A stretch of 64,000 nt of DNA from NCBI RefSeq assembly GCF_030684315.1, contig NC_081396.1, positions 2,418,001 to 2,482,000 of the forward strand. Reading direction: 5' to 3'. Position numbers and translations under genes: made by a program. Shown here piece by piece: positions 6,188 through 64,000 of the stretch (positions within the stretch are counted from its first letter, which is position 1; every line of letters starts with the position of its first letter). The notes under the pieces are model-generated. The model was not told where the DNA came from, did not search any database, and worked only from the letters and a program-made list of their open reading frames with translations. This stretch comes from Stegostoma tigrinum (Eukaryota).

Positions 6188-7606
6188 TTATTGCACTTCC
6201 TGCAGTGTCACATTTAAATGGTTTGCTTTCTTCCCAGTGTGAACTCGCTGGTGCCTCAGTAGGATGGATGACTGAGTGAATCTCTTCCCACACTTGGAGC
6301 AGCTGAATGGCCTTTCCCCAGTGTGAACCCGCTGGTGAGTCAGCAGATTGAATGACTGTGCGAATGTCCTCCCGCACTCTGTACAGGAGAATGGCCTCTC
6401 CCCAGTGTGTGTTCGCTGGTGGACAGTGAGCTCAGATGATGACCTGAATCTATTCTCGCACTGGAAGCATCTGAAAGGTTTCTCGTCAGTGTGAATGCGT
6501 TGATGGGAAATCAGCTTCCCTGAACTTTTAAAGCAGTTTCCACACACTGAGCATTTAAAAGGTCTCTTGTCAGTGTGAACTTGTTGATGGGACATCAGAT
6601 CCCCTGAACTTTTATAGCATTTCCCACAGTTTAAACATCCAAAAGGTCTCTCATCAGTGTGAACTCGTTGATGGGACATTAGTTCCCCTGAACTTTTATA
6701 GCACTTTCCACAGTCCGGGCACTTAAAAGGTTTCTCCTCAGTGTGAATACGTTGATGGCGTACCAGTTCCCCTGAGCGTTTAAAGCAATTCCCACATTCT
6801 GGGCATTTAAAAGGTCTCTTGTCAGTGTGAACACGTTGATGGTTCATCAATGCCCCAGAACTTTTAAAGCACTTCCCACAGTCTCTGCATTTAAAAGGTC
6901 TCTCGTCAGTGTGAACACGTCGATGGGATACCAGTTCACTGGAACCTTTATAGCCCTTCCCACAATCTGGACATCTAAATGGTCTCTCGTCAGTGTGAAC
7001 ACGCCGATGAGACATCAGATTGCTGGAACTTCTATAGCACTTCTCGCAGTCTGGGCATTTGAAGGGTCTCTCTCCTGTGTGAACACGTTGGTGGCGCATC
7101 TGTTCCCCAAAACTTTTATAGCCCTTCCCACAGTCTGGACATCTAAATGGTCTCTCCCCAGTGTGCGTATGTTGATGGGACAGCAGTTCCCTGGAACTTT
7201 TATAACACTTCTCACAGTCCAGGCATTTAAAAGGTCTCTCATCAGTGTGAACTCTTTGGTGGGACATCAGATTGCTCGAACTTTTAAAGCACTTGCCACA
7301 GTCTGGACATTTAAAAGGTCTCTCCTCAGTGTGAACACGATGGTGGGACATCAGGGTGGATGACTGAGTGAATCCCTTCCCACACTTGGAGCAGGTGAAT
7401 GGCCTCTCCCCCGTGTGACTGTGTTGGTGAATTTCCAGCTCCGATGGGGATCTGAATCCTTTCTCACAATCTCCACATTTCCATGGTTTCTTCCCAGTCT
7501 GATTGCGCTTGTGGCTTGTGAGGTCAGATAACTGACTGAAGCCTTGTCCATGCTCAGGACATGCGTATAGCTTCTCGCCAGGGAGAATAGTGTTTTCTCT
7601 TTCCAT
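6188..7606 (-). CDS. C2H2 zinc-finger protein, 15 intact fingers plus 1 degenerate, no KRAB
   Basis: Open 474-codon frame. First ATG at 7606 (MERENT; the track start is TTG). Tandem CxxC-x12-HxxxH with TGERPF/TDERPF linkers. Confidence 0.9.
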
Positions 7607-10600
7607 GCTCAAAATCCAGTCGTATTCAGGTTACACTAAATCAGATGATTCTGTGAGATTCTGAAATGATATTTGGCTTGAATTTCCGACTGTGAATCCT
7701 ACCTTTGATTACACTTGTAAAATTTAATGAGAACAGAAACAGAAAAAAATGATTCAAAACAGAAGGAACACAAAATCACAAAAACCAGCTTAGAAACAAA
7801 GCTGACTGAATCTAGTAGTTTATGGGGAGGTCACAAGGAAACCGTGACCATGAAATCTGCCAGATTTCCCTCAAAAAAACCAACAGGTCACCAATCTCCT
7901 CCAGGGAATGGAAACTGCCATGCAGTCTGGACGACAAATATCTGACATCCATGGGAGAACAGAGAGAGCTTGGGTGACAGCAGAGGCCACAAAGCAGAGG
8001 AGCACGAGCAAGTGGGGGGGGGGGTGGCTCGATTGGGAGGAAGCTTGGGAGCGAGGAAGGCAGCGTCAAGAGGTGAGGGAGAGAATGAGGGGCGACGGAG
8101 ACAGCGAGGGGCAAGAGTGGGAATTATAGCAATAAGAGAGCGTGGGGGCAATGACTCATCACTAAGGCTTTCCATTTCCGCCTCAATGACATCACCTAAC
8201 TCTGCCCTGGTCTCAACTCCTCTGGAACTGTCATCCAGTTCTTTGTTACTCGTGGACTTAAATGTTCTAGCACATTCTTGGCAAACTTCCCACATTGATC
8301 TTTCCTGTAATCTCAAGGTTATCCTCATTCTGTTGTTCAGACTTTATTCACACCAAACCTTGTTCACCCATTACCGCTATGCTATTTGTTTACAAAGCAC
8401 CAAAACTTAAAAAAAACTCAGCATTGTTTTTAAGTCCCTTCCTGGCTGAAATCATCTCTACCTCTCTAATCTCTCTGAGCTGCACAAAAGTCAGATATAT
8501 CTGTGTTCAGCCCATTCCAACTTTTGAACTTTCCAGATTTTAAATCATTCCTCCACCAATGGCCGTTTTTAAATAAATTTCGCTGCCGTTGGCGGAGGAT
8601 CTGGAAATTCCTCCTTAAATTTCTCCAGGTCACACTGTTCTTCAAGATAATGCCGAAAACACACCGCTTAATTGAAATGTTTTCTCATCACCACACAGAC
8701 TGCAGCATTCAAGCAGGGCCACAAGTTGTTACAGGATGACAATATAATCTGCTGATCTTGGTGGTGATTCTGAAAGCCCAAGATCAAATTTTTAAAATAT
8801 TTAAATTTTCATACAGGATCATACATATAAAAATGGATTAAAAGCATCTGCAGAAATGCTTGTTCCTAACAATATCATCTCATTATTTTGAATGCAGTGT
8901 CCATTTCACAACCTGATCTCCCCTAAAACGTGCCAATCTGCTGACAATTAGAGATCGGAAATTCCTGGAATTGACTGGTTCCAAAGGCCTCAGGATTAAA
9001 CCGAGCAGCTCCTCCTCCATATCCATTTCAGCTCAAGCTAATTCATCAAATGCTTTCACAAAAGAACTGGATAAGCACCTGAAGTGCATTACAGACCCTC
9101 GCCACCCTCTTGGTGAAATATTTTTCCCTCAAATCTAGTATCAGCCTTTCACATTAAAATTGCTCCCTGTTATTACTGACCCTTCAACTAAGAGGACAAA
9201 GTTGGCCTTCCTGAGTTAATTATTTGTACAATGGATTGTTTAGTATCATTTTCATAAACAACAGCTTAAACCTTTTGAAACAACGATTATCATCCTTTAA
9301 CATCTCAAATAATACTTCGCCCTGCTCATTGCCCAAGAACGAGGTTCAGTGGGGGGGAAACCTCCTTCGGTTACAATGTAAGGGAAGGGAGTGAAACTCA
9401 CTGGCTATTTTCTCTGACTATGTACGAAATGGCCTCCTTCTGTTCTGTGATCATTCCGTGAGTCTGTGAAAAAGGATGTGAACTGGAGACACAGAGTAAA
9501 TCTCTGGAACCAAAACTGCCATACTCTAAACCTTAATTAGCTCTTAATTAGTCTGTCTGTGTTTCTGGACTCAGTTTTCTGAACAAGTCCTGGAATAAAT
9601 CGAGGAAAATACTGTAGATACTGGACAACTAAAACAAAGATGAAAGGCTGGAAACCCAGCAGCTCAGACAGTATTTGTAGTGAAGGGAACACAGAATTAA
9701 CATTTCAGGATGTGCAGAATGAATACAGTGAATGAAAATAGTACAGAATATGATGGTTCACATTAGCTCAGAAGAGAATTGATCACTTATTCAGGAAATA
9801 AAATTGCTGACTGTGGGAAGACAAAACCAGTGAATCAGCCACATATAGTCAACAGATGAGTAACAATGAAAACCCCATTTGGAAACAATTAGTAAACACA
9901 CCAGCAAAATACTAAACAGGGTTAAGATAAACCAGTATTAATGGTAGATCAACTTGGACAATGACAAAGAAATGATCAGGGTGAGAGTGGTGAAACAAAG
10001 CAATGGACCTGGTTTCATAAACACTGTAATAGACTCACAACACATCCAGACAGATGGAGCAACAGCATAGCACAAAAAGCTGTAAACTGTAGGTGGATGC
10101 GCAACAATACTCACTTCTGAAACAATTTCATTGCTTTGAAATTAAATTCTCCTGTTGAATGTTGCAACTGGAAAAATAGCCCAAGAATTGTAAGAGATAA
10201 AAGCCCAGTTGTCAAAAATCTTCAGCTCCCTGTAAAATGAGATTCCAAAAATCATAAGTGTCAGTCAAAATTGAAATTCAGAGACAAAATTTTCTCTTGG
10301 TTGAAACTTGCGCTGTCAAAGAAGTTTCGAGATTGAAGCTAGAATGTAGAATCACAGAAAGACTTGAAGGAAGAGAAATTTTAATTGCAAGGTCAGGTTG
10401 AGGGAAAATTTGAAAGATGTGTCTAAGTTTAGACTTGATTACCTTAGGTAGATAAAGAAGCATTGCAGAGTGAAATTTTGTTCCTGCCATATGGTCCTTC
10501 TCCACACTGTCCAGTGAAGTGCAGGGTGACAACCTAAGATTGTGGCTGATATCATATAAATTATAATTTTGGGGTTTGTCTGAGGTTGATAGCAATCCTC

Positions 10601-11539
10601 ACTGTACCTGCTTTAGTGTTCTCTGGAAATTTTAATCTTCTGCTCAGTTCACCCAATTTAAGATCACTTTGCTCTATTGAGAAGAGAAATGGTCCCATGA
10701 CCGACCCTGAGGGTCACAACTATTTATATCACTTCCTCTGCGAAAACTCTATTTTGCCACTCTTTTCATATATTTATAAAGAAGATTGGTATTCCCTTGC
10801 AAATTAATTGTTAGTATCATTCCATACTCCCTTTCTGCCTCTCCACCATTCATTCCAATCTCTCTGAAACATCGATTTTCAATAAGGTTCTCAACCGTAT
10901 TTTCTCCTGTCTGTAACAAACACACTTCTTCTGGCTGTCTTAATTTTTATCTCTTGTCATTTATAAAGCTCTAACTTCCTTTGCCCTACTTTTTGATTGT
11001 GTCTGAAATACTTCTTTTTCAAAAGGTAGTCAATTATTCAATTACATTCTTTTCCTCGCAACATTTGACTCAATTATTTTTGGCACAGCGTTGTTCTTAC
11101 TAAATTAAAAATGAGATTCAGAGACCATACAGGATAGAAGAGACCCTTTGGTCATCAAGTCAGTAATATCAGATCTAACTAAATCAACACTTGTAACGCT
11201 GTCCAGTCCCAAGTCCAGAGCTTTGAACATCATGACATTTCACTCACTCATCAAAGTACTTTGTAAAAGTTGTGAGGTTACCCACATCAACTCATCTCCC
11301 AGGGAGTGCATTGCAGACACCCACCACCATCTGGGGGAAACATTTTCCCCTCAAATCCCTTTTAAGCCCTTCACTTAAAATTATGTCCCATTATTATCGA
11401 CTAAGAGGACTGAATTGGCTTTACACAGTTAATGATTTGTACACTGCATTGTTCAGCATCATTTTCATAATTAGCTGTCAAAAACTTTTGACACAATGAT
11501 TATCACTTCTTAAATGCCCAACTAACACTTCACCCTCTT

Positions 11540-11683
11540 CTCCGCCTCCCCCTCTCTCCTCATTTATTCCAGAACCCTCACCCCATCCCCCTCTCTGATG
11601 AATGGTCTAGGCGCGAAATGTCAGCTTTTGTACTCCTGAGATGCTGCTGGGCCTGTTGTATTCATCCAGCCTCACATTTTATT
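11540..11683 (+). mobile_element. PLE family 1 terminal-repeat fragment with degenerate hammerhead motif
   Basis: Matches 34402-34585. Core ctgatga...gaaatgtc at 11595-11622 has stem II and stem III substitutions. Confidence 0.8.
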
Positions 11684-12024
11684 ACCACGTCCAGTATTGC
11701 CTCCTTTCACATTGGACTAAAATCACAACCTGGGACAGAGTCGCCGACCCACACCAAATGGCCTGCAGTGATGCAAGAAAACATCGCTCCAACACCTCGT
11801 CGAAGTCTATTAGGAATGACTGATAGATATTGGCCAATTCAGCAAGGCCTGGTCCTCCGAAACAAACAAACGTAAGCTATGAATATGTTCCTGAAAACGT
11901 TTTAGGAAGTCTTGTCCTGTTGTGCAAGCACATTTCAGTGTAATTTTCTTCCTAATCTTATTGATTATCATCCTCAGCCTACATCAGAGCAAACAAAACT
12001 CACCAACACAAGAAACCCCCAACA

Positions 12025-13035: not shown

Positions 13036-13540
13036 TAAATATTCTGGTTTTGTTAGGAAGGTTCCTTTTGCACCTCTTAATGTTTTGTTACTCTTTTGAC
13101 TTATTTTGGTTTGTTTGGATCAGGTTTCTAGAAGAACAGGAATGTTCCAATGAAACTGCAATTGTCTGTTCTGATTTTCTGTTTTGTACCGATAGTGAGG
13201 GCTTTTGTTATCTTGTTTCACAAGGTACTGGAAGAAGATTGCAGACTGGATATTCAATCCAAGCGTCACACCTACACCTGTGAGAATCACTCGATTTATT
13301 CATTCTGAATGTTATCAGCCTCTGACTATAGAAGAAATGGTTTCTGTTCTCTTCAAAGGAGAAGATATCAAATGTCAATCTGACTAGAAAAGCAACAAAA
13401 CTGATAAACAGACCTGAGTGAGAGTGTTCTGTTAAACATCCTGAAAAAAAGTCACATATTTGCGGCAGAGAGAAACTGTACATGTGTGGGTGAGGTTTCA
13501 ACTGATCATCCAAACTGGAGAGAAAAAAGGACGTTGTGCA

Positions 13541-14689
13541 ATGGAGAAACCATGGAAATGTGGTGACTGTGGGAAGGGATTCAATTACCCATCTCAACTG
13601 GAAGTTCATCGCCGCAGTCACACTGGGGAGAGGCCATTCACCTGCTCTGTTTGTGGGAAGGGTTTCACCCATTCATACAACCTGCTGACACACCAACGAG
13701 TTCACACTGAGGAGAGGCCATTCGCCTGTCCTGTGTGTGGGAAGGGATTTGCTCGATCATCCCACATTGTGACTCACCAACTTGTCCACACTGATAAGAG
13801 ACCATTTCAATGCCCAAACTGTGAGAAGAGTTTTAAATGCAGAAAGGATCTGATGATACATCAACGTATCCACACTGGGGAGAGGCCATTCACCTGCTCA
13901 GTCTGTGGGATGGCATTCACTCAGTCATCCCACCTTCAGACGCATCAACTGGCTCATTCTGATAACAAACTTTTTAACTGTTCTAACTGCGAGAAGAGCT
14001 TTAAAAGCAAAAAGGACCTGCTGACACACCAGTATACTCATACAGGAGAGAGGCCATTCACCTGCTCTGTGTGTGGGAAGGGATTCACTCGTCCATCTGG
14101 CCTGCTGTATCACCAGCGGATTCACACAGGGGAGAGACCATTCACCTGCTCTGTATGTGGGAAGGGATTCATTAATTCATCCAACCTTTTGATACACCAG
14201 CAACTCCACACAGGAGATAGACCTTTCACCTGCCCTGATTGTGGGAAGGGATTCACCCGTTCATGTAACCTTCTGACACATCAGCAGGTTCACACAAAGG
14301 AGAAACCTTTCACCTGCCCTGTGTGTGGGAAGGGATTCACGCGATCCTCCAACCTAATGAATCACCAACGAGTTCACTCTGGAGAGAGGCCATTCACTTG
14401 TCCAACGTGTGGGAAGGGATTCAGTCAGTCATCCAACCTGCAGACACACCAGAAGATCCACACTGGGGAGAGGCCATTTACCTGCTCTGAGTGTGGGAAG
14501 GAATTTTCTCATTCATCCTACCTGGTGAAACACCAGCGAGTTCACACTGGCGAGAGGCCGTTCACCTGTAATGTCTGTGGCAAGGGATTCATTCAGTCGT
14601 CCCATCTACTAACACACCAGCGAGTTCATAAGCAACTGCAGTGTTTGGATTCTGCACTTGCTGATGCTGCTAAACATATCCAGGACTGA
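13541..14689 (+). CDS. C2H2 zinc-finger protein, 13 fingers, no KRAB
   Basis: Open frame from ATG 13541 ([10 protein letters not shown]; the track start 13460 is TTG). 13 canonical fingers and tail [19 protein letters not shown]. Confidence 0.9.
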
Positions 14690-20130: not shown

Positions 20131-20622
20131 CGATAGGGGTTTGATTCTAGTGATCTTACTGCCCTCATCATAGCCAGGACTGAACTAGCAAGTTATACCT
20201 GAGCAGTGCAAGAAATGTCCCAGCCGCTTTCTTCCATGGTTTAGGGGTCCTAGACATTGGCCAGATGATCCTTTACAACTGTGTTTAGAGTCAGAAATAA
20301 CAACGCTGAAGGCTGAAAAAGTGCTATCAAATCGCAGATTAGCATTGAAATATGACCTTTTCTGACTGGAAGTGAATTAATAGGTTCATTGGTAAGTAGA
20401 AAACATGAACAAAAGCCTTCCATTGCTAATATGTAATCTTTCAGCCTTTTCTAAGGAAAAGAGCTTCAGACTTTCATGGTTATTACAAGATATCCCTTTA
20501 TGTGATATTCGTGGTTTAACATTTACTTTCCTTGTCCTTGTGAATTATGACAGCAGCAGAAATATTTCATATCTGAGGGATTTCAGTTTGGGCTATTTGC
20601 ATTTACAACATTTTCAGATTTT

Positions 20623-20751
20623 CTGAATAAGGGTCTAGGCCCGAAACGTCAGCTTTCCTGTTCCTCTGATGCGGCTTGGCCTGCTGTGTTCATCCAGCTC
20701 TACACCTTGTTATCTCAGATTTTCCAGCATCTGCAGTTCCTACTATCTCTG
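20623..20751 (+). mobile_element. Solo PLE terminal repeat with hammerhead-like motif (core mutated to ctgaata)
   Basis: ctgaataagggtctaggcccgaaacgtcagc...ttatctcagattttccagcatctgcagttcctactatctctg, colinear with 24453-24586. Confidence 0.8.
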
Positions 20752-24250: not shown

Positions 24251-24452
24251 TACAATATAAACAGGCAATCACCTCTTGCATACTCGAAATCTGCTACAGT
24301 TCTTTGCAGCCTTTCAGTGTGAAGTTGCACAACTAACGTGAATGAAAGTTGGAGTGGTAAACGATTGACCATCCGCTCAGAACTGAGCAATATTGCCAAA
24401 CTCAGAGAACCACACAGACAATCCAGGGAGTACACATTGAGGGATGATATGT

Positions 24453-24586
24453 GATCAGAGATAATGGGAACTGCAGACGCTGGAGAATCCAAGATAACAA
24501 AGTGTGAAGCTGGATGAACACAGCAGGCCAAGCCGCATCTTAGGGGCACAAAAGCTGACGTTTCGGGCCTAGACCCTTCATCAGAA
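24453..24586 (-). mobile_element. Stand-alone 134-bp PLE terminal-repeat insertion with intact hammerhead motif and 14-bp TSD
   Basis: TSD gagggatgatatgt at 24439-24452 and 24587-24600. Insert reads ttCTGATGAagggtctaggcccGAAAcGTCagc...cccattatctctgatc. Confidence 0.9.
24557..24584 (-). ncRNA. Minimal type I hammerhead ribozyme motif
   Basis: CUGAUGA, stem II GGG/CCC, GAAA, palindromic ACGU stem III, GUC triplet. Stem I is only 2 bp. Confidence 0.6.
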
Positions 24587-25229
24587 GAGGGATGATATGT
24601 CACCATCTCAGCAATCAGTACGCTCAGCAACTGAGGATTCACAGATTAGAGAATTCCAAAGATTCACAGCAATTTGAGTGAAAATTATGCCCCACTTTTA
24701 ATACTAAATGGCTTACACATGATGAAGAGAATGTAAGGCCATTTCTGGACAAACCATTCAGGGATAAACACCTTCTGTGCAACAACACTGTCAAACTATT
24801 TCTGAATTTTAGACAACTCAATAAGATGTTGTCCAAAACTCGAGAGAGAACAGGCACATCTTATCTCACCTCCATGTCAACCATTTCATCTCATGGGCCA
24901 GTTCAGTGGACGTGTTAGCAGAGGGGCAACTAACCAAGAGAAGAAACTCAGGAAAAAGATGGAGGTCATTGGACCTGGTAAGCTGCTTTGAAAGAGCAGT
25001 TGAGGTTCATTGATGAGGAGTGAGATTGTGCCAGCGAAAACAGCTGGAAGTAAAATCTATCCTATGACTATCCATATTTTCTCTCTCACCACTGTCTCTA
25101 CCATCAGTGCTTGTCAGTACAGTCACTCGTAGAGTTTTTTTTATAGTATGGCCTCAATGTCATCAAACATCCATTTGTTTAATACCATTTTTCAGCATTT
25201 GGCCTTGTAAATTTTCCAGTGTTCCTCTA

Positions 25230-27738: not shown

Positions 27739-28860
27739 TCATTTATGAACTCGCTGGTGTCTCAGCAGGTTGGATGAGTGAGTAAATCCCTTACCACAAT
27801 CCATGCAGGAGAATGGCCTCTCTCCAGTGTGACTGCGTTGGTGTACAATGAGGTCAGATGATCGCTTAAACCCAGCCCCGCAGTGAGAGCACCTGAAAGG
27901 TCTCTCCTCAGTATGAACACGCTGATGGCGTGTCAGCTCACCAGAACTTTTAAAACACTTTCCACAGTCTGGACATGCAAATGCTCTCACCTCTGTGTGA
28001 ACATGTTGGTGGAGAATCAGTACCCTGGAACTTTTAAAGGACTTCCCACAGTCTGAACATTCAAAAGGTCTCTTGTCAGTGTGAACCAGCCGATGTGTGA
28101 AAAGGTGGGATGACTGAGTGAACCCCTTCCCACAATCGCTGCAGGTGAATGGTCTCTCTCCAGTGTGAATTCGCTGGTGTTTAGTGAGTTGAGATGATTG
28201 CCTGAACCCAGTCCCACATTGAGAACACCTGAATGGTCTCTTGTCAGTGTGAACATGTTGATGGGATGTGAGATTGCTGGAACGTTTAAAGCACATCCCA
28301 CACTCTGGACATTTAAAAGGTCTCTCATCAGTGTGAACACGTAGATGGGACATCAATTCTCCTGAACTTTTATAGCATTTCTCACAGTCTGGGCATTTAA
28401 ACGGTCTCTCCTCTGTGTGAACACGTTGATGGGACATTAGTTCCCCTGAACTTTTAAAGCATTTGCCACAGTCCGGACACTGAAAAGGTCTCTCATCAGT
28501 GTGAACACGTAGATGAGACATCAGACTGCTGGCACTTTTATAACACTTCTCACATTCTGGACATTTAAAAGGTCTGTCTTCAGTGTGAACCCACTGGTGT
28601 CTCAGCAGGCTTGATGAATGAGTGAATCCCTTCCCACACTGAGAGCAGATTAACGGTCTCTCTTTGATGTGAACCCACTGGTGTCGCAGAAGATGGGCTG
28701 ACCGAGTGAATCCCATCCCACACTCTGAGCAGATGAACACTTTCACGCCAGTATAACTGCATTTGTGATTTGTGAGGCCAGCTGATTGACTGAAGGCTTG
28801 TCCACACACACAGCACATGTACGGCTTCTCCCCACTGTGAGCGGGACTTGTCCATTCCAT
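27739..28860 (-). CDS. C2H2 zinc-finger protein, 12 intact fingers plus 1 degenerate, no KRAB
   Basis: Open frame with first ATG at 28860 ([13 protein letters not shown]), ending HQRVHK*. Confidence 0.9.
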
Positions 28861-29919
28861 GTTCAAAATCTGATGAATTTCTGATTATGGCGAATGTGGT
28901 GCCTCTCTGAGATCCTGATGTGATGTTTGGTTTGAGGTTCCTGATGGCAAATCCTCCTTCTCTAATACCCTGTGAAGTTTATTTAGAACAGAATAGTGTG
29001 AAAGAGAAGAGAATTGACAAAAACACAAAGGGAAGTTATGAAATGGAGCTGAAAGAGTCTGGCAATTTCTGGGGCAGACACTAGAAAGAAGTGACCACAA
29101 AAGCTACCAGTTTGTTAAAGAAAACAAACATGCCACCCAGTCTGGACTACACAAGGCTTTGGCTTCAACGGTGGAAGGAGAGAAGGGAGAACAAGAAAGA
29201 GAGAGAGAGAGAACTGGGGAGAAAGAGTGTATGAGAGGGGTGAATCAAAGAGAAAGTACAGAGGGGAACAGAATGTGTGCAGCAGCGATGAGAGAAAGTG
29301 TAGCCGGGAAGCGGAGCCAGATTGTGAGAAGGGTGGCCACAATGTGAAGTGTGCGACAGCCAGAGAGGGGAATCGGTGTGAGAGCATGAGGAGGGAGCGA
29401 GGAAGAGGATAAAAGGGAATCTAAGAGAATGAGGCAGTAGTCAGTATATTATAGAGGGAGGGAATCAGGAGGATTGACCTTTCGCCCACTGTCCGTCTCC
29501 TGGTCACTGGGAACCTGACGCCCCACCCACTCATATGACACCATCAAGTGGATCGTGTGTCCACTGGTTTCCCCCTGAACCTGTTTACCAGAAAATGCCC
29601 TGCAGCTGCAAGCATGGCTCCTTCAGCATCTAATTCAGTATTTCAGGCCTCCCCAACTCACACCTCCATTCCTTTCCTCACCTGCCCTACCCCAACTTCC
29701 TCACCGTGGCTCCATTCCCTACCCCGCTATCCCCTGTCCACCACATCATTAATGATTACTCTGCCATGTATCTTCTTTTAAAGTGATTTTGACACTTCTC
29801 TTCCTTGTGGAAATACCCTGAGATTAGATTTCTGGATGGTTATAGGAATAGGAAGGGTTTAAAGGGAAAGGGACCAAAAGCTGCAAATGGGACTGGATTA
29901 ATTTAGGATTCTTTTTAGA

Positions 29920-31035
29920 ATGGAGTGTTGTAACTAGTGCTGTTCCACAGGGATCAGTGTGAGAACTTTGCTTTTTGTGGTTTAGAGAAATGATTTGGGA
30001 GAAAACTTAGCCGGTCTAATTAGTAAGTTTGCAGATGATACAAAGTCTGGTGGAGTTGCGGATAGTGAGGAGGATTGTCAGAGGATACAGCAAGGCATAG
30101 ATCAGTTGGAGGTGTGGGCAGAAAAAACGGCAGATGAAGCTCAATCCAGACAAATTGCATTTTGGAAGGTCAATTGTGGGTGAAATTTACACAGTGAATG
30201 GCAGAACCATTAGCAGAGGGATCTGAGTGTGCGGGTCCACAGATTATTGAAGGCACTGGCACAAGTAGATAAAGTAGTAAGAAAAACACCTATGTCATGC
30301 TTGCCTTCATTAGAAGGTGCATTGGGTACAAGGATAAGCAAGTTATGCTGCAGATTTATAGAATTTTAGTTAGGCCACACTTGGAATATAGTACAGTCTG
30401 GTCACCACCCTACCAGAAGAATGTGGATGCTTTGGAGAGGGTACAGAAAAGGTTTACCAGGATGTTGCCTGGTATGAGGGATTTTAGCCATTAAGAAAGG
30501 TTGGATAGACTGGGAGACAATAAGGACTGCAGATGCTGGAAGCCAGAGTCTATAGATGTGAGGCTGGAATAGCACAGCAGGTCAGACAGCATGAAAGGAG
30601 CAGGAAAGTCAGGTTTCGTGCCAAAACCCTTCGTCAGGACTCCGATTGGGTTTGTTTTCACTGGAATGTAGAAAGTTGAGGGGAAACCGGATAGAAGTTT
30701 GTAAGTTTGTGAATGGCATGGATACAGTGAAAAGTATGAGGAGTTTTCCCAGGGTGAAGGGGGACACAGGCTCAAGATGCGAAGGAGGGGGTTGGGTGGG
30801 GGCGGTGCATTTTTAAGGAAATGTGCAAGGCACATTTTCCACACACAGAGTGGTGAGTGCCTGGAACACATTGCCAGAGGACGTGGTGGAAGCAGATGCA
30901 AGAGCAGCATTGAAGGAGCACCTGGATGAATTCATGAAGAGGAAGGGAATAGAGGCATAGGAATCCGGTAAGTGAAGACAGTTTTTGCATAGAAGTGCAA
31001 AATGTGTCATTGCAGGCCTGAAGAGCCAGTTCTGT
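29920..31035 (+). mobile_element. CR1 LINE 3' fragment interrupted by a solo PLE repeat
   Basis: ISKFADDTK, LVRPHLEY and ALERVQKRFTRMLPG in shifted frames. Confidence 0.85.
30515..30643 (-). mobile_element. Solo hammerhead-bearing repeat (variant 2) inserted into CR1
   Basis: Minus strand AGTC-CTGACGA-agggttttggcac-GAAA-cct-GACT. Flanks gactggg (30508-30514) and gattggg (30644-30650). Confidence 0.75.
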
Positions 31036-32800: not shown

Positions 32801-32820
32801 GATACATGACAGATATAAGT

Positions 32821-33961
32821 GATAATGGGAACTGCAGATAATGGAGAATCTAAGATTCTTCAAAGACCGCAACTTTCCCCCCGCAGCGGTCGAGAATGCC
32901 CTTGACCGCGTCTCCCGCATTTTCCGCAACACATCCCTCACACCCCGCCCCCGCCAAAACGGCCCCAGGAGGATCCCCCTCGTTCTCACACACCACCCCC
33001 CGCCAACCTCCGGATACAACGTGTCATCCTCCGACACTTCCGCCATCTACAATCCGACCCCACCACCCAAGACATTTTTCCATCCCCACCCCTGTCTGCC
33101 TTCCGGAAAGACCACACTCTCCGTGACTCCCTTGTCTGCTCCATACTCCCCTCCATCCCCACCACACCCGGCACCTTCCGCTGCAACCGCAGGAAATGCT
33201 ACACTTGCCCCCACACTTCCTCCCTCACCCCCATCCCAGGCCTCAAGATGACTTTCCACATCAAGCAGATGTTCACCTGCACATCTGCCAATGTGGTATA
33301 TTGTATCCATTGCACCCGGTATGGCTACCTCTACATTGGGGAAACCAAGCGGAGGCTTGGGGACCGCTTTGTAGAACACCTCTGCTCGGTTCGCAATAAA
33401 CAACTGCACCTCCCAGTCGCAAACCATTTCAACTCCCCCTCCCATTCCTCAGACGACATGTCCATCATGGGCCTCCTGCACTGCCACAATGATACCATCC
33501 GAAGGTTGCAGGAACAACAACTCATATTCTGCTTGGGAACCCTGCAGCCCAATGGTATCAATGTGGACTTCAGAAGCTTCAAAATCTCTCCTTCCCCCAC
33601 TGCATCCCAAAACCAGCCCAGCCTGTCTCTGCTTCCCTAACCTGCTCTTCCTCTTACCCATCCCTTCCTCCCACCTCAAGCCGCACCTCCATTTCCTATC
33701 TACCACCTCATCCCGCCTCCTTGGCCTGTCCATCTTCCCTGGACTGACCTATCCCCTCCCTACCTCCTCACCTATACTGTCCTCTCCACCTATCTTCTTT
33801 TCTCTCCATCTTCAGTCTGCCTCCCCCTCTCTCCCTATTTATTCCAGTTCCTTCTCCCCATCCCCCTCTCTGTTGAAGTGTCTAGGCTCGACACGTCAGC
33901 TTTTGTGCTCCTGAGATGCTGCTTGGCCTGCTGTGTTCATCCAGCTCCACACCTTGTTATC
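32821..33961 (+). mobile_element. Penelope-like element (family 1), 5'-truncated with inverted tail; degenerate hammerhead at 33870-33897
   Basis: FFKDRNFPP... then a frameshift, then GIY-YIG ORF 33248-33640 (VYCIHCTRYGYLYIGETKRRL). 32821-32856 is an inverted copy of the repeat tail. Ends ttgttatc. Confidence 0.9.
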
Positions 33962-34401: not shown

Positions 34402-34585
34402 TCTCCTCTCCAGCTATCTTCTCCTCTATCCATCTTCGGTCCGCCTCCCCCTCTCTCCCTATTTATTCCAGAACCCTCTCCCCATCCCCCTCTCTGATGA
34501 AGGGCCTAGGCCCGAAACGTCAGCTTTTGTGCTCCTGAGATGCTGTTTGGCCTGCTGTGTTCATCCAGCTCCACACTTTGTTATC
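34402..34585 (+). mobile_element. PLE family 1 3' terminal fragment
   Basis: Near-identical to the reverse complement of 47613-47795. Ends ttgttatc. Confidence 0.85.
34494..34521 (+). ncRNA. Minimal type I hammerhead ribozyme motif (intact core)
   Basis: CTGATGA a GGGCCTAGGCCC GAAA c GTC. Confidence 0.6.
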
Positions 34586-42370: not shown

Positions 42371-42847
42371 ACTTCTTCATCCTTGAGAGGGGTTGTAGTG
42401 TATGGGGAGAAAACAGGAACAGGGTTGAGTTGTAAATCTATAAAATTCAAGTCCTTCATGTGTACGTCTTCCACCTCTATCTCTTTCTGACGTTTTTTTT
42501 GTGCCAACACAGACTGGTTCTTTTCCCAGAAGGAGCTTTACGAACCAGTTCAGTTTTAATGATAATCCCAGTTTCCCTCGATGTCATTTCCACAACTGAA
42601 GAGATTAATTGCTGTCAGGTTCACAACCTGTGTGTTGTTCTGGTTTTCCTGATACAGTTATTTTCTGTTTGAAAGGTTGATTTGTAATTAGAGACTTCAG
42701 GTGAAACCATCTCCAGATCCAACAGTCACTCTGTTTATCAAATCTAATTTTCTCAGGATTTTGAACATTGAAGGAAATAGCTCCATTCACACCGGGGAGA
42801 AACACATATCGTCCGTGTGTAGAAGAGTCTATGAAGATTCATCTGAG

Positions 42848-44422
42848 ATGTCCAAACAACAGCACAATCACACTGGGGAGAGCCTTTTCAAATGTGGGAA
42901 TTGCGGGAAGGGATTTCTTTACCAATCCCAGCTGGAAAATCATCAACGCAGTCACACTGGGGAGAAGCCATTCACCTGCTCTGATTGTGGGATGGGATTC
43001 AGTCAGTCATCCAACCTGCGGATCCACCAGTGGGTTCACACAGGGGAGAGGCCATTGACCTGTACTGAATGTGGAAAAGGATTCACTCACTCATCCAAAC
43101 TGCTGGAACACCAGCGGGTTCACACTGGAGAGAGACCATTCACCTGCTCCATTTGTGGGAAAGCATTCGCGCAGTCATCCAACCTGCTGATACACCAGCG
43201 AATTCACAGGAGAGAGAAACCATTCACCTGTTCTGAATGTGGCAAAGGATTCACTCACTCATCTAAACTGTTGGAACACCAGGGAGCTCACACAGGGGAG
43301 AGACCATTCACCTGTTCTGAATGTGGGAAAGGATTCACTCACTCATCTAAACTACTGCAACACCAGCGTGTTCACAATGGAGAGAGGCCATTCACCTGCT
43401 CTGATTGTGGGAAAGGATTCACACACTCATCTAAACTGCTGGAACACCGGGGAGTTCACAGTGGGGAGAGACCATTCACCTGCTCTGCTTGTGGGAAAAA
43501 ATTCACTCGGTCATCCAGTCTGCAGATACACCAGCGAGTTCACACGGGGGAGAGGCCATTCACCTGCCCCAATTGTGGGAAGGCATTTGCTCAGTCATCC
43601 AACCTGCTGATACACCAACGAGTTCACACTGGGGAGAAACCGTTTACCTGCTCCCAGTGTGGGAAGGGATTCACTCAGTCATCCAGCCTTCGGATACACC
43701 AGCGAGTTCATACTGGGGAGAAACCATTCACTTGCTCTGACTGTGGGAAGGGTTTCACTTCGTCATCCAGCCTGTTGAAACACCAAGGAGTTCATACAGG
43801 AGAGAGAGCATTCACCTGTTCTGAATGTGGAAAAGCATTCATTCACTCATCTAAACTACTGGAACACCAGGGCGTTCATACTGGCGAGAGACCATTCACC
43901 TGTTCTGAATGTGGGAAAGGATTCACTCACTCATCTAAACTGCTGGAGCACCAGCGAGTTCACACAGGGGAGAGACCATTCACCTGTTCTGAATGTGGAA
44001 AAGGATTCATTCGCTCATCTAATCTCCTGGAACACCAGCGAGTTCACACCGGGGAGAGACCATTCACTTGTTCTGAATGTGGAAAAGGATTCATTCGCTC
44101 ATCTAAACTGCTGGAACATCAACAGGTTCATACCAGAGAGAAATCATTCACCTGCACCGCTTGTGGGAAGGGATTTACCCAATCATCCAACCTGCTGAGG
44201 CACCAGCGAGTACACACTGGGGAGAAACCATTCATCTGCTCTGATTGTGGGAAAGCATTCGCGCAGTCAACGATCCTGCTCATACACCAACGAATTCACA
44301 GGAGAGAGAGACCCTACACGTGCTCCGACTGTGGGAAGGGATTCACCCAATCATCCAACCTGCGGAGACATCAGAGAGTTCACGCTGGGGAGAAACATTC
44401 ATTCAGTCAACTCACCTGTTGA
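42848..44422 (+). CDS. C2H2 zinc-finger protein, 18 fingers, no KRAB
   Basis: Open frame from 42701 (GTG). First in-frame ATG at 42848. 18 canonical fingers. The true start may come from an upstream exon. Confidence 0.9.
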
Positions 44423-47135: not shown

Positions 47136-47612
47136 TCATTCCATTCAGCTGTTAACCAAAAGGTTGGTAGTTTGTAGACCAGCCAGGAAAGGAAGCCTAT
47201 TTATTTTGCCCATCAACATACCCCATGACACCGTTCTGGATTGTCAACGGGAATTTTGGCAGAAAGACAATTTCGCCAAATGTTGATCGCGCCACGCAGT
47301 GAGGCCTCAAAAGACAGCTTCTAATGTGTGGGTGTTGCAAATTACGAAACAACATGGAATTTTGGAGGCCAATTGCGAAATAATTCATTGCCCCTTAAAT
47401 CCTGACCATCTCTGAAAAAAACACATGCAATCATGAAGATGAAGAAAGAGACTACCCTTTTCGCCAGGCGAATAAATATATGAAGCTGAGAGCAAACAAT
47501 GACAATATACTTGATAGACATACCTGAATCAAGATTTTCCAGTGTACGCTCCTTGTCTGGATTCACTTCCTCTCCCTTCCGTTGCTGCAAGTGAACAGTA
47601 TTCTCCCTCCTA

Positions 47613-48621
47613 GATAATAAAATGTGAGGCTGGATGAACACAGCAGGCCAAGCAGCATCTCAGGAGCACAAAAGCTGACGTTTCGGGCCTAGACCCTTCA
47701 TCAGAGAGGGGGATGGGGGGAGGGAACTGGAATAAATAGGGAGAGAGGGGGAGGCGGACCGAAGATGGAGAGTAAAGAAGATAGGTGGAGAGGGTGTAGG
47801 TGGGGAGGTAGGGAGGGGATAGGTCAGTCCAGGGAAGACGGACAGGTCAAGGAGGTGGGATGAGGTTAGTAGGTAGCTGGGGGTGCGGCTTGGGGTGGGA
47901 GGAAGGGATGGGTGAGAGGAAGAACCGGTTAGGGAGGCAGAGACAGGTTGGACTGGTTTTGGGATGCAGTGGGTGGGGGGGAAGAGCTGGGCTGGTTGTG
48001 TGGTGCAGTGGGGGGAGGGGATGAACTGGGCTGGTTGAGGGATGCAGTGGGGGAAGGGGAGATTTTGAAACTGGTGAAGTCCACATTGATACCATATGGC
48101 TGCAGGGTTCCCAGGCGGAATATGAGTTGCTGTTCCTGCAACCTTCGGGTGGCATCATGGTGGCAGTGCAGGAGGCCCATGATGGACATGTCATCAAGAG
48201 AATGGGAGGGGGAGTGGAAATGGTTTGCGACTGGGAGGTGCAGTTGTTTGTTGCGAACTGAGCGGAGGTGTTCTGCAAAGCGGTCCCCAAGCCTCCGCTT
48301 GGTTTCCCCAATGTAGAGAAAGCCGCACCGGGTACAGTGGATGCAGTATACCACATTGGCAGATGTGCAGGTGAACCTCTGCTTAATGTGGAATGTCATC
48401 TTGGGGCCTGGGATGGGGGTGAGGGAGGAGGTGTGGGGACAAGTGTAGCATTTCCTGCGGTTGCAGGGGAAGGTGCCGGGTGTGGTGGGGTTGGAGGGCA
48501 GTGTGGAGCGAACAAGGGAGTCACGGAGAGAGTGGTCTCTCCGGAAAGCAGACAGGGGTGGGGATGGAAAAATGTCTTGGGTGGTGGGGTCGGATTGTAA
48601 ATGGCGGAAGTGTCGGAGGAT
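47613..48621 (-). mobile_element. Penelope-like element (family 1), 5'-truncated, with open GIY-YIG region and complete 3' repeat
   Basis: ILRHFRHLQSDP...NVVYCIHCTRCGFLYIGETKRRL...GINVDF, stop at 47929. 3' repeat ends ttattatc at 47613. Confidence 0.92.
47677..47704 (-). ncRNA. Minimal type I hammerhead ribozyme motif (intact core) in the PLE 3' repeat
   Basis: CTGATGA a GGG tctagg CCC GAAA c GTC. Confidence 0.6.
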
Positions 48622-49023: not shown

Positions 49024-49235
49024 TGAGGAACTGCAGATTTTGGAGAATCCAAGATAATAAAGTGTGAAGCTGGATGAACACAGCAGGCCAAGCAGCATCT
49101 CAGGAGCACAAAAGCTGACGTTTCGGGCCTAGACCCTTGCTCTCTGATGAAGGTCCTAGGCCCGAAACGTCAGCTTTTGTGCTCCTGAGATGCTGCTTGG
49201 CCTGCTGTGTTCATCCAGCTTCACACTTTATTATC
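49024..49235. mobile_element. Mini PLE insertion made of two inverted terminal repeats, 13-bp TSD, hammerhead motif at 49144-49171
   Basis: Perfect 80-bp inverted arms 49053-49132 and 49156-49235. TSD agaggaaagggag at 49011-49023 and 49236-49248. Confidence 0.92.
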
Positions 49236-56957: not shown

Positions 56958-58588
56958 ACATAGAACATAGAACATTACAGCACAGTACAGGCCCTTCGGT
57001 CCTCGATGCTGTGCCGACCTGTCATACGGATCTCAAGCCCATCTAACCTACACTATTCCATGTACATCCATATGCTTATCCAAAGACGACTTAAATGTAC
57101 CTAAAGTTGGAGAATCTACTAACGTTGCAGGCAAAGCGTTCTATTCCTTTACTACTCTCTGAGTAAAGAAACTACCTCTGACATCTGCCCTATATCTTTC
57201 ACCCCTCAATTTAAAGCTATGCCCCCTCGTGCTCGCCGTCACCATCCTAGGAAAAAGGCTTTCCCTATCCACCCTATCTAACCCTCTGATTATTTTATAT
57301 GTTTCAATTAAGTCACCTCTCAACCTTCTTCTCTCTAACGAAAACAGCCTCAAGCCCCTCAGCCTTTCCTCGTAAGACCTTCCGTCCATACCAGGCAACA
57401 TCCTAGTAAATCTCCTCTGCACCCTTTCCAAAGCTTCCACATCCTTCTTATAATGCTGACCAGAACTGTACACAATACTCCAAGTGCGGCCGCACAAGAG
57501 TTTTGTACAGCTTCACCATAACCTCTTGGTTTCGGATCTCGATCCCTCTATTAATAAAAGCTAAAACACTGTATGCCTTCTTAACAGCCTGTCAGCCTGG
57601 GTGGCAACTTTCAAGGATCTGTGTACACGGGCACTGAGATCTCTCTGCTCATCTACACTACTAAGAATCTTACCATTAGCCCTGTACTTTGCCTTCCGGT
57701 TACTCCTACCAAAGTGCATCACCTCACACTTGTCCGCATTAAACTCCATTTGCCACCTCTCAGCCCAGCTCTGCAGCTTATCTATGTCCCTCTGCAACCT
57801 ACAGCATCCTTCGTCACTATCCACAACTCCACCGACCTTAGTGTTGTCTGAAAATTTACTAACCCATCCTTCTACGCCCTCATCCAGGTCATTTATAAAA
57901 ATGACAAACAGCAGTGGACCCAACACTGACCCTTGCGGTACACCACTAGTAACTGGTCTCCAGGATGAACATTTCCCATCAACTACCAACCTCTGTCTTC
58001 TTTCAGCAAGCCAATTTTCGATCCAAACTGCTATATCTCCCACAATCCCATTCCTCTGCATTTTGTACAATAGCCTATTGTGGGGAACCTTATCGAACGC
58101 CTTGCTGAAATCCATATACACCACATCAACCGGTTTACTCTCATCTACCTGTTTGGTCACCTTCTCAAAGAACTCAATAAGGTTTGTGGGGCACGACCTT
58201 CCCTTCACAAAACCGTGCTGACTATCCCTAATCAATTTATTCTTTTCTAGATGATTATAAATCCTATCCCTTGTAACCTTTTCTAACACTTTACCAACAA
58301 CTGAGGTAAGGCTCACTGGTCTATAATTACCAGGGTTGTCTCTACGCCCCTTCTTGAACAGGGGAACCACATTTGCTGTCCTCCAGTCATCTGGCACTAT
58401 TCCTGCAGACAATGACGAGTTAAAGATCAATGCCAAAGGCTCGACAATCTCCTCCCTGGCTTCCCAGAGGATCCTAGGATAAATCCCATCTGGCCCAGGA
58501 AACTTATCTATCTTCACCCTCTGAAGGATTTCTAATACTTCTTCCTTGTGAACCTCAATCCCACCTACTCTAGTAGCCTGTATTTCAT
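56958..58588 (-). mobile_element. Young 5'-truncated CR1/HER1-type LINE
   Basis: ORFs 57561-58517 (NYRPVSLTS, DFSKAFD, GVPQGSVLGP, SKFSDNTK) and 57141-57497 separated by frameshifts. 3' tail (atagaac)n at 56958-56975. Confidence 0.95.
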
Positions 58589-59661
58589 CTCTTTACTCCT
58601 GCCACACTCAGAAGGTAAGTTTTCCTGAATAATTGCAGACAAGGTCTCACTCCTTACATTACTGCGTCGATGTGATCTTCAAAAGAAAAATAAGGTAAAC
58701 TCACATCTTCTCGAGACTGTGCAACTGTAGATTCTTTGTGAACGGGTCCAATTACTTCTGGTTATATTCTGCTCAAAGATGCCTCTGCCATATACAAATC
58801 TGTAAAGGTGATAGGATCATTTCGGCACTATTGTTTTCATTGTTCAACTTTCCATGTTGAAATAATATGATTTCCCACATCATTGAGGTTATATTTGTTC
58901 GAAAATAAATGAATCAAATGCTGTGCATTTACAGCAGTTACAGCAGCGTCCATTTCCACGGATGCTAGAGGCTCTATTAAACATTTTGATCGTATTCTGG
59001 TGACTTCGTCTTTTTAATTCTTTTGTTCTTGGATTTATTTTTCGCAGCTGAGTAATGTATTTTATGTCTGGTACATTAGAGATGAGATGAATAAGTCCAC
59101 ATTACAGAAGGCATAGATCACGCCAAAATTTTGAGAGAATGTGGAATTGTTCCTGACTGTTCCATTCTGTGTGGACTGGTCCAGTTCAGCGCGCCTGTGC
59201 GAATTTTGAACTAGTCCATTAATCTTCTAGCTATCTTCAAGATTTCGTTTTCAGATGCCGCATACGGCTGTGACATTTCCCCACCGTCAATGAAGGGACC
59301 AATCGTCGTGTCATCTACAAGTGTAATTTTCTCACCACTGTCCACCCCGCCCCCTAACACGCGCACATTTTCTTCTCTATTATTTATATATGTCACGAAA
59401 GGCTGCAATTTAATTGTTACACAGTCCCAACATTTTTAACAGATGAATTTGTACAAGGATATTGGGGAAAGAGTGACTGAGGAACAATAGGCTACTGAGC
59501 AAGGCAGAAACGAGCACTGCTACTTTAGTAGGAATATGGTGATGGGGTAGTGGAATTGTTAGCTTTCAAGTCTACTAAATTGAAGACAGAAGAGAGGACT
59601 GACCTATTTTGCCAAAGCGACCATGGGTGGATGATCTCAGAATGGCAGGGCTTTCTCTACT

Positions 59662-62379: not shown

Positions 62380-63290
62380 TTATTGTTTAAATAACTTAAC
62401 TATGTGATTTAATGGATAGTTCATCACAGTCTTTAACTCTTCTCTGAATTTACTCTGGGTGCCTGCATAAATGCAAGGGTTGATACAGGAACTCAATAAC
62501 TGAAGCATGAATCCACTTTCATCTAGAATAAAATTAGAATTGGTAAAATCTGTACCTGAGAAATAAGTGACTCTCGCAATTCTGACATAGAGAAACGTTA
62601 CAAGAACCAACAAGTATAACAGGATGAAATTGCCTGAGACACAGAACAGTAAAATAATCGATTTCTTCCGGTTCTCTATTTCAGAGTCAATCTGATCTTT
62701 TCCTTTGGTCTGGATCCTCAGTCTCCTGCGGGCTCTGTTGGCCACTAGAATGTGCCTGATAGTCAAAGAATTTAGCAGTATGATTAAAGCGAATGGGAGA
62801 CAAGGAGTCAAAATGTGATGAATCCAATCATATGCAGTCCATGCTGGTGATGTATAAAATATAGATTTTATGTTGCAGAACCAGGGAACATTGTTAATTG
62901 TGTACAGAGGTTCATATATAAAATACAAGAATGTATTTTTTACACAGCTTAGTGTACAAGCTGCAGCTATGACACGAGCTGCCGTCTTTGTAGTGCAATA
63001 TTTAATTTGCAGCTGCTGGAAACAAATGGCTATAAATCGATCGAAGGTAAAAGCGACAGTTAACCACACAGAACTGTCTATGATAGCGTAGTTTAGCACT
63101 GAACGGAAACTACATACTGGTGTGATCATCAGGAAGCTGACTGGGAAATAAATACCAGAAATCCGATTGAATATCACTGCCGTGATCATCACCAGGAGAT
63201 CTGACACTGCCATGGATACCAGATAATACGTAATACATCTGGAAAGACCGCATCTTCCTCGTGCCAAGATCATAATCACTGCCAAGTTAG
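62380..63290 (-). CDS. Class A GPCR, GPR139/GPR142-like; main coding exon (end of TM1 to C-terminus)
   Basis: MAVSDLLV (TM2), SVWLTVAFTFDRFIAIC (DRF), PWFC, LPFALIILLN and SCINPCIY. Acceptor ctttcaattacag ends at 63291. First exon not identified. Confidence 0.85.
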
Positions 63291-64000
63291 CTGTAATTGA
63301 AAGGGAGAGATCGAGAGATTTTGATGAAAAATGAAGTTTTGTTTTTACATCTATGACAAGGAAGCTACAAATCATGACATTTACACGTGCCTTTTGACCA
63401 CTGGCACATGAAACTGAGCTGGAACACATCACTTGTGCTGTTGCCATCACCTATGTTTGTAATAAAAATTATGATCAAACCTAAGACCAACATTGGCACA
63501 CCGGTAGAATAGTGAAGCAAAAGGTAAAAGTGCTTATGATAGCAATAAAAACAGTTAAATCGACATAGGGGCAGGAAATCGAAAAGGAAAATAATATTTG
63601 TTGTAGAACTGGTCAAAGCTTGATGGAGAAAGTGCGAGTCACTCAGGTTAAAGAATTATCAAAAGGTGAAGGTGGTAACATTCACGCACACAAATGGCCG
63701 CTACCGGGATCAAATAAGGAGGAGGAATGCAGTCCTGATGCTTGATTGAAGACCCAGCACTTAGCAACATGACACAGACGTCTCTGATTGGAAGAAGGCG
63801 CTAAGAGGCTCGGCAATTAAACAGAGAGGATTGAAAATCTGCAACGCATCTCGAGAGAATGATGTGGCTTTTTCGGTTTTGGACTGGGATGGACAGGGAC
63901 AGAAATTACACGATAGAAGATTATAGTCTAACAGGTTTATTTGAAAACACAAGCTTTATTGACCTTCAGAAAATAATCGTGCTCGAGACAACAAAGAAAC

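Follow-up and report, generated by a model that had tools for sequence, protein, structure and literature searches.

A solo, ribozyme-bearing end-repeat of an abundant Penelope-like element in Stegostoma tigrinum, as read from its sequence

The 134-bp insert at 24453-24586 of the 64,000-nt stretch of Stegostoma tigrinum DNA analyzed here (the window) has the sequence of the ribozyme-bearing end-repeat (pLTR) of a very abundant Penelope-like element (PLE), inserted alone. By alignment, its unit is the ordinary pLTR plus tail of an autonomous PLE. Rather than a retrozyme, the insert is a solo pLTR from a retroelement of known kind. It was probably made in one target-primed insertion, in which reverse transcription began at an internal site in the tail and ran about 135 nt to the likely capped end of the RNA. 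Directly observed are the identity of the insert with the pLTRs of full copies that encode reverse transcriptase (RT) and GIY-YIG, its 14-bp duplication, and, in the family at large, two 3′ hot spots and a 5′ hot spot one base wide, preceded by an extra G.

The insert, its target site and its parent element

The features of the locus are as follows, unit positions 1-134 being those of the insert counted on the minus strand.

24439..24452, no strand: first copy of the target-site duplication; ACA, with which it begins on the minus strand, also fits the continuation of the element
24453..24586, minus: solo pLTR plus tail of a putative Neptune-type PLE; unit positions 1-134
24453..24492, minus: the "tail," about 40 nt between the family 3′-end hot spots at ~94 and ~130
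24557..24584, minus: predicted minimal type I hammerhead core; CUGAUGA, 4-bp stem II, GAAAC-GUC with ACGU palindrome
24587..24600, no strand: second copy of the target-site duplication; it ends in CCCTC, which has microhomology to sequence upstream in the element

The 14-mer GAGGGATGATATGT occurs twice, exactly, at 24439-24452 and 24587-24600, with 134 bp in between; the chance of such a 14-mer at both insert junctions is about 2e-6. A contig of the related organism B (public DNA run X5) joins 24438 straight to 24587 with a single target copy, and none of the differences listed (all but 12) falls in 24587-24600; the 14-bp repeat is therefore a true target duplication. A first-pass annotation of the window had described a stand-alone 134-bp unit within a perfect 14-bp duplication and had proposed a search for the empty site in related species; the description is borne out, and organism B supplies the empty site. 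Both insert junctions are spanned in sequencing run X1, which comes from the same organism and possibly from the source sample. A search of the same genome for a paralogous empty site, made with the right flank, brought up five short repeat matches besides the locus itself and nothing else.

On the minus strand, the insert begins 2 nt 5′ of CTGATGA and terminates in TCTCTGATC, as the annotation had read it. The TCTCTGAT "echo" that it had remarked on is present, but belongs to the sequence of the PLE family, a real copy having it at positions 0 and 126. The insert has no coding capacity, and its duplication, at 14 bp, is longer than 4 bp. At the 3′ junction the target begins ACA where the element would continue TGATCACA, and at the 5′ junction the target ends CATCCCTC, resembling the element's upstream CATCCCCCTC; the ends of the insert are therefore uncertain by about 3 nt. 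The 5′ end, which falls in this microhomology, has no extra G.

Over its entire length the insert can be aligned with both pLTRs, 5′ and 3′, of the full-length copies L226, L225 and L210, and it is 93% identical to the family majority across unit positions 4-92; of its 29 closest genomic copies, most either form the 3′ end of a longer copy or are paired with an inverted one. Among 20 loci fetched by following the sequence downstream of the tail, and chosen for holding the ORF start, there are complete pLTR-ORF-pLTR units with a period of about 3.5 kb (e.g., L210, L217, L226, L228). A natural stop-free frame of 1058 aa (L223:888-4064), 96% identical to the PLE fragment in the window, gives the order of the single ORF as RT followed by the GIY-YIG endonuclease at the C terminus; the domain matches (RVT_1 at 500-684, E 6e-6; GIY-YIG at 918-957, E 0.003) are both below Pfam cut-offs. 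In this copy the first in-frame ATG is at about unit position 169, and short upstream ATG frames lie within the pLTR. The translation also contains a CX4CxxC linker (CNRRKCYTC) and CCHH-type residues. The Neptune clade is defined by a CX2-5CxxC linker upstream of GIY-YIG plus CCHH, the linker being shared with Nematis (PMC8557442), and the motifs by themselves point to a parent of Neptune type. The annotation's attribution of the insert to PLE RT and GIY-YIG machinery agrees with these data, the unit being the pLTR plus tail of a PLE that encodes both. The family shows partial-tandem pLTRs, inverted arms and an optional tail, and the hammerhead is present in the parent pLTR at the level of the motif. 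In another set of loci (L185-L195), 70-300 nt from the ORF start follow the pLTR before the sequence switches to the 3′ UTR or to a second pLTR, structures that may be internal deletions or template jumps.

Eleven further unit matches lie in the window, several of them extending upstream into the pyrimidine-rich UTR and the GIY-YIG frame. They include the following:

11530..11684, plus: short 3′ UTR + pLTR copy; ends at unit 92
20621..20751, plus: older-subfamily solo copy; unit 1-131, 87% identity
30514..30637, minus: distant-family pLTR copy; 72% identity, inserted in another repeat
32815..33961, plus: parent PLE copy, 5′-truncated; ends at unit 94, with an inverted tail fragment at 32815-32856
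34402..34585, plus: short 3′ UTR + pLTR copy; ends at unit 94
47608..48621, minus: parent PLE copy, 5′-truncated; holds the GIY-YIG part at the end of the ORF, then the 3′ UTR and a pLTR reaching position ~99
49027..49235, no strand: head-to-head pLTR pair; arms 9-120 minus and 2-94 plus

Two of these had been offered as parallels to the insert. The copy given as a twin with almost the same boundaries (20623-20751) does cover unit 1-131, but its core is broken (CTGAATA), and repeats at its junctions reach no more than 4 nt, no duplication being found. The supposed variant of similar size (30515-30643) is a related pLTR copy, but at 72% identity, inside another repeat and with a junction repeat of only 6-of-7; the two flanks of the host repeat are adjacent in 2 sampled loci. 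Elsewhere in the window are another 5′-truncated copy of the same PLE that stops short of the pLTR (353-1480, minus), a cluster of long C2H2 zinc-finger exons (6188-7630, 13445-14689, 27739-28884, 42692-44422) with more decayed ones nearby, an RT fragment of another element (57561-58592, minus; RVT_1 E 7e-35), and a rhodopsin-family receptor of 356 aa in a single frame (62380-63450, minus).

Family ends and the proposed template

For an unbiased sample, 160 10-kb stretches were asked for at round positions on large contigs, of which 140 existed (1.4 Mb); 303 matches yielded 151 copies at 86% identity or higher, and 143 after 8 edge copies were dropped. Scaled from the 151, the family has about 345,000 copies per genome. 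The 136 ribozyme-anchored copies comprise 59 that extend into the UTR, 46 paired with an inverted arm and 31 that stand alone, a few of these being decayed or of the older subfamily; the upstream UTR is absent in 77 of the 136, i.e., about half of the family is short. A duplication of at least 7 nt is found in 9 of the 31 stand-alone copies and in 2 of 31 in a shifted control.

The 3′ ends of the 143 copies cluster at 91-101 and 127-135. These two hot spots (~94 and ~130) may be RT start sites, and they match the two internal RT starts reported to bound the tail of an anole PLE (PMC11167929). The 5′ ends form a sharp peak, with 49 of the 143 at positions 0-5, about 7 of the 49 being long second-subfamily copies mis-called by the reference. 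With patterns requiring three non-element bases ahead of a fixed word, we counted 5′ joints genome-wide: 9,608 at position -1, 84 at -7, 1,163 at 14, 4,179 at 31 and 1,282 at 57. Scaled by word frequency in the sample, this is about 10%, 0.13%, 0.9%, 1.8% and 0.4%, respectively, of the copies carrying each word, the controls at 14 and 57 being upper bounds (a variant with a 1-nt deletion adds to the count at 57, and inverted joints add to that at 14). The boundary is therefore non-random, and together with the 3′ clusters these counts sustain the annotation's view that recurring ends go beyond random truncation. It is likely that the shared ends mark the start of the PLE RNA and the start of the copying enzyme, rather than a small circular RNA. 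The main peak at -1 sits 2 nt upstream of the start of our insert.

A G stands ahead of the -1 start in 83 of the first 100 matches listed, of which 44 were possibly templated by an inverted arm. With a T fixed in front of that preceding base to exclude such templating, the G:A ratio, counted by eye as were all such ratios here, is 91:9 among the first 100 of 1,708 matches listed, against 54:46 at each of the neighboring starts 0 (511 matches) and -2 (373), again for the first 100 listed (p 4e-9); the second subfamily gives 87:13 among its first 100. An untemplated 5′ G in L1 insertions has been attributed to copying of the cap (PMC9341517), and we infer that the extra G here may likewise be a copied RNA cap; the same G would arise without a cap if the RT adds a C whenever it reaches the end of an RNA. 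In both subfamilies the 5′ start site matches the TCT initiation motif YC+1TYTYY (PMC5580651), a motif so short that pyrimidine tracts readily match it. The -1 hot spot is presumably the PLE transcription start, and transcription is reported to begin within the pLTR in Penelope (PMC2377424) and Chlamys-3 (PMC8557442). Our literature search, with most subscription papers, Repbase and supplements beyond its reach, found no description of a cap-G 5′ end or a strong-stop cDNA for PLEs, and no earlier description of a family whose pLTR-only half has a single-base 5′ end and an extra G.

Head-to-head pairs bear on how the two 3′ hot spots are used. In 34 of 36 pairs drawn from sample loci L045-L184, one arm ends at or before 110 and the other beyond (~94 / ~130), where about half would be expected (p 8e-9), and duplications of at least 7 nt (9-17 nt) flank 29 of the 36, against 2 controls. 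This suggests that each insertion uses both RT start sites, one per strand. A tail at one end only has already been described, and was ascribed to endonuclease resolution, with inverted joints ascribed to self-priming on an antisense template (PMC8557442, PMC3846280).

For the insert itself, the likely steps are these. Transcription would start at the C at -1 and give a capped PLE RNA, near whose ORF start the PLE protein would bind. GIY-YIG would make a 14-nt staggered cut in the target, and RT would prime at the tail site within the 5′ pLTR of the RNA, ACA helping, copy about 135 nt and run off the capped end. The cDNA would then anneal to the CCCTC of the target and be sealed without a second arm; sealing by the ACA and CCCTC microhomologies would account for the missing extra G. 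The template would be an ordinary PLE RNA. The RT of the anole PLE is reported to start internally at two sites and to need RNA downstream of them, ribozyme cleavage being unneeded (PMC11167929).

Only tentatively, and sooner betting against it than on it, do we extend this to the family as a retrovirus-like strong-stop cDNA: a protein dimer bound near the ORF start of a capped, TCT-initiated RNA would prime two target strands at ~94 and ~130 in the 5′ pLTR, and each cDNA, run to the cap, would either be integrated at once (giving solo pLTRs and head-to-head pairs, together half of the ~345,000 copies) or be transferred to the 3′ pLTR (giving long copies). If this is true, the genome records the PLE transcription start and a rule of one priming site per strand, and the main template is uncleaved RNA.

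The hammerhead and alternative origins

Cleavage by the hammerhead is predicted between 24557 and 24556, after unit position 30 and inside the insert. Only 2 pairs of helix I adjoin the core, which could form helix III only as a dimer. An Rfam scan of the window gave 0 matches at gathering score, and the whole unit folds no better than shuffles (z 0.74), with no stable structure. In this insert the predicted ribozyme would be a passenger, the maker of neither end. Two other sources of the 5′ end were ruled out: a type II or III hammerhead cutting near position 1 has no room for helix I, and RT stalling at the stem would place ends near 22-30. Position 31, at the predicted cut, is a modest second 5′ peak, 2-4 times the two internal controls, 60 of the first 100 matches listed there being palindromic head-to-head joints; given this peak, some ribozyme-cut templates may exist.

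Rare dimers and trimers with a period of 126-138 are present, two trimers among them. Units of ~133 nt form trimers or dimers with an inverted ~95-nt arm at L229:180-660, L230:191-675, L231 and L232, the two joints in L229 being identical. At L196:1088-2400, four near-identical 261-nt units (0-4 differences), a hammerhead in each, are joined where the ORF start and the 3′ UTR share pyrimidine microhomology; this array has the tandem form by which non-LTR retrozymes are defined. The trimers and the array make a rare circle or repeated-jump origin possible for those loci.

The annotation had proposed for the insert a discrete RNA of about 130 nt, possibly templated by a circle or a tandem array. 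The periodic multimers, the identical L229 joints and the L196 array, with one ribozyme motif per unit, speak for it, and a preprint (10.64898/2026.07.22.740005) has a usage under which such arrays are retrozymes and monomers "solo retrozymes." We nevertheless consider it highly improbable. Tail-to-head joints number 8 (4 of them true dimers) plus 9, or 17 genome-wide, against 44,956 tails (~0.04%); they vary between loci and several hold an extra G, as expected of RT jumps. The contigs of four sequencing runs of unknown or presumed RNA kind list no such joint, a result that weighs neither way. No same-strand neighbor at 120-140-nt spacing occurs among the 136 sampled copies. Cleavage would give monomers that begin at 31 instead of -1, and a circular template would leave permuted copies. 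The predicted cut inside the unit, the lack of a stable fold, the cap-like G and the single pool from which short and long copies appear to come also count against a tandem or circular template. The insert is a monomer, and its ends are not those that self-cleavage would set.

That same pool bears on whether solo pLTRs are SINE-like partners (of which MRC1 is an example), each transcribed from its internal promoter into a short capped RNA that the PLE protein copies again in trans. Such a partner would have an identical capped 5′ end and 3′ hot spots, its abundance would fit the short half of the family, and in a rotifer pLTRs alone are reported to have mobilized host DNA in trans (PMC3846280). 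We think it unlikely. Across 106 copies (89 nt, 11 variable columns), no column separates short from long (best p 0.03-0.05 of 11 tested), and nearest-neighbor agreement is 0.493 against a null of 0.494 (p 0.5), so that short copies seem to have no lineage of their own; moreover, the RNA that the anole PLE needs downstream of its RT starts (PMC11167929) is absent from solos ending at 94-134. Had the two pLTRs of a full-length insertion recombined in the manner of solo LTRs, one G-pLTR-tail would remain inside the original duplications, and recombination or deletion has been proposed for duplication-less rotifer solo pLTRs (PMC3846280), but this origin is very unlikely here since full-length precursors are too rare: among 48 long copies, 12 extend to 1 kb, only 3 to 2 kb and none to 2.7 kb, and 0 of 151 sampled copies run from the pLTR into the ORF start. 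Both arms are, besides, short in 22 of the 36 head-to-head pairs. Chance 5′ truncation may have acted at this single locus, halted where the target CATCCCTC resembled the element's upstream sequence, as the 5′-joint microhomology and the missing G would allow; we give it very little credence, joints at -1 exceeding those at -7 about 80-fold per copy, an excess by which the prior favors the hot-spot class for the insert.

Significance and comparison with known systems

The locus itself is ordinary, one among tens of thousands of similar inserts, and it is the family-wide end signatures that merit attention. They bear on an open question, the origin of PLE pLTRs, tails and inverted arms and the purpose of the hammerhead. 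The single-base 5′ end with its extra G puts the predicted start of transcription at one exact base, 31 nt upstream of the predicted ribozyme cut, and implies copying of uncleaved RNA; the pairing of one short arm with one tailed arm predicts that both RT start sites are used per insertion. There is also a warning here: what a homology-based count takes for "solo retrozymes" may be no more than by-products of PLEs.

The parent resembles the EN+ PLEs of Neptune type described by Craig et al. 2021 (PMC8557442) in its single ORF with RT and C-terminal GIY-YIG, CX4CxxC linker and CCHH-type residues, and in its hammerhead pLTR, partial tandems, inverted arms, 30-40-nt tail at one end and 9-17-nt duplications. 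It differs from those elements, as described there, in that about half of its copies are pLTR-only, with a single-base 5′ end and an extra G. Poseidon_Ac of the green anole (Frangieh et al. 2024, PMC11167929) is alike in its two internal 3′ ends flanking the tail, in a ribozyme placed away from the insertion ends, and in the extension of both DNA strands. In the published in vitro results Poseidon_Ac shows no strand difference in start site, whereas here there is one site per arm in 34 of 36 pairs; that account gives it no target homology, whereas the insert and several other loci (uncounted) have short 3′ microhomology.

The hammerhead core shares with the minimal PLE hammerheads of Cervera and de la Pena 2014 (PMC4209133) the CUGAUGA, the unpaired base before stem II, the palindromic ACGU, the lack of a monomeric helix III, and mostly single, dispersed motifs. 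Its stem II of 4 bp and helix I of 2 adjacent pairs compare with a reported usual 7-8 and 4-5, the 2-pair helix I being as in D. virilis Penelope (PMC4209133). Animal non-LTR retrozymes (PMC7229834; 10.64898/2026.07.22.740005) are likewise non-coding, with a type I hammerhead, kinship to PLE pLTRs and long duplications, and are described as tandem units of 150-450 bp that give self-cleaved linear and circular RNA; the insert, in contrast, is a monomer identical to an autonomous pLTR, in a family whose tandems amount to about 0.04% of tails. The solo pLTRs of Adineta vaga Penelope (PMC3846280) are also pLTRs without an ORF, but are reported as duplication-less and ascribed to recombination or deletion, whereas the insert described here has a true duplication and an empty site.
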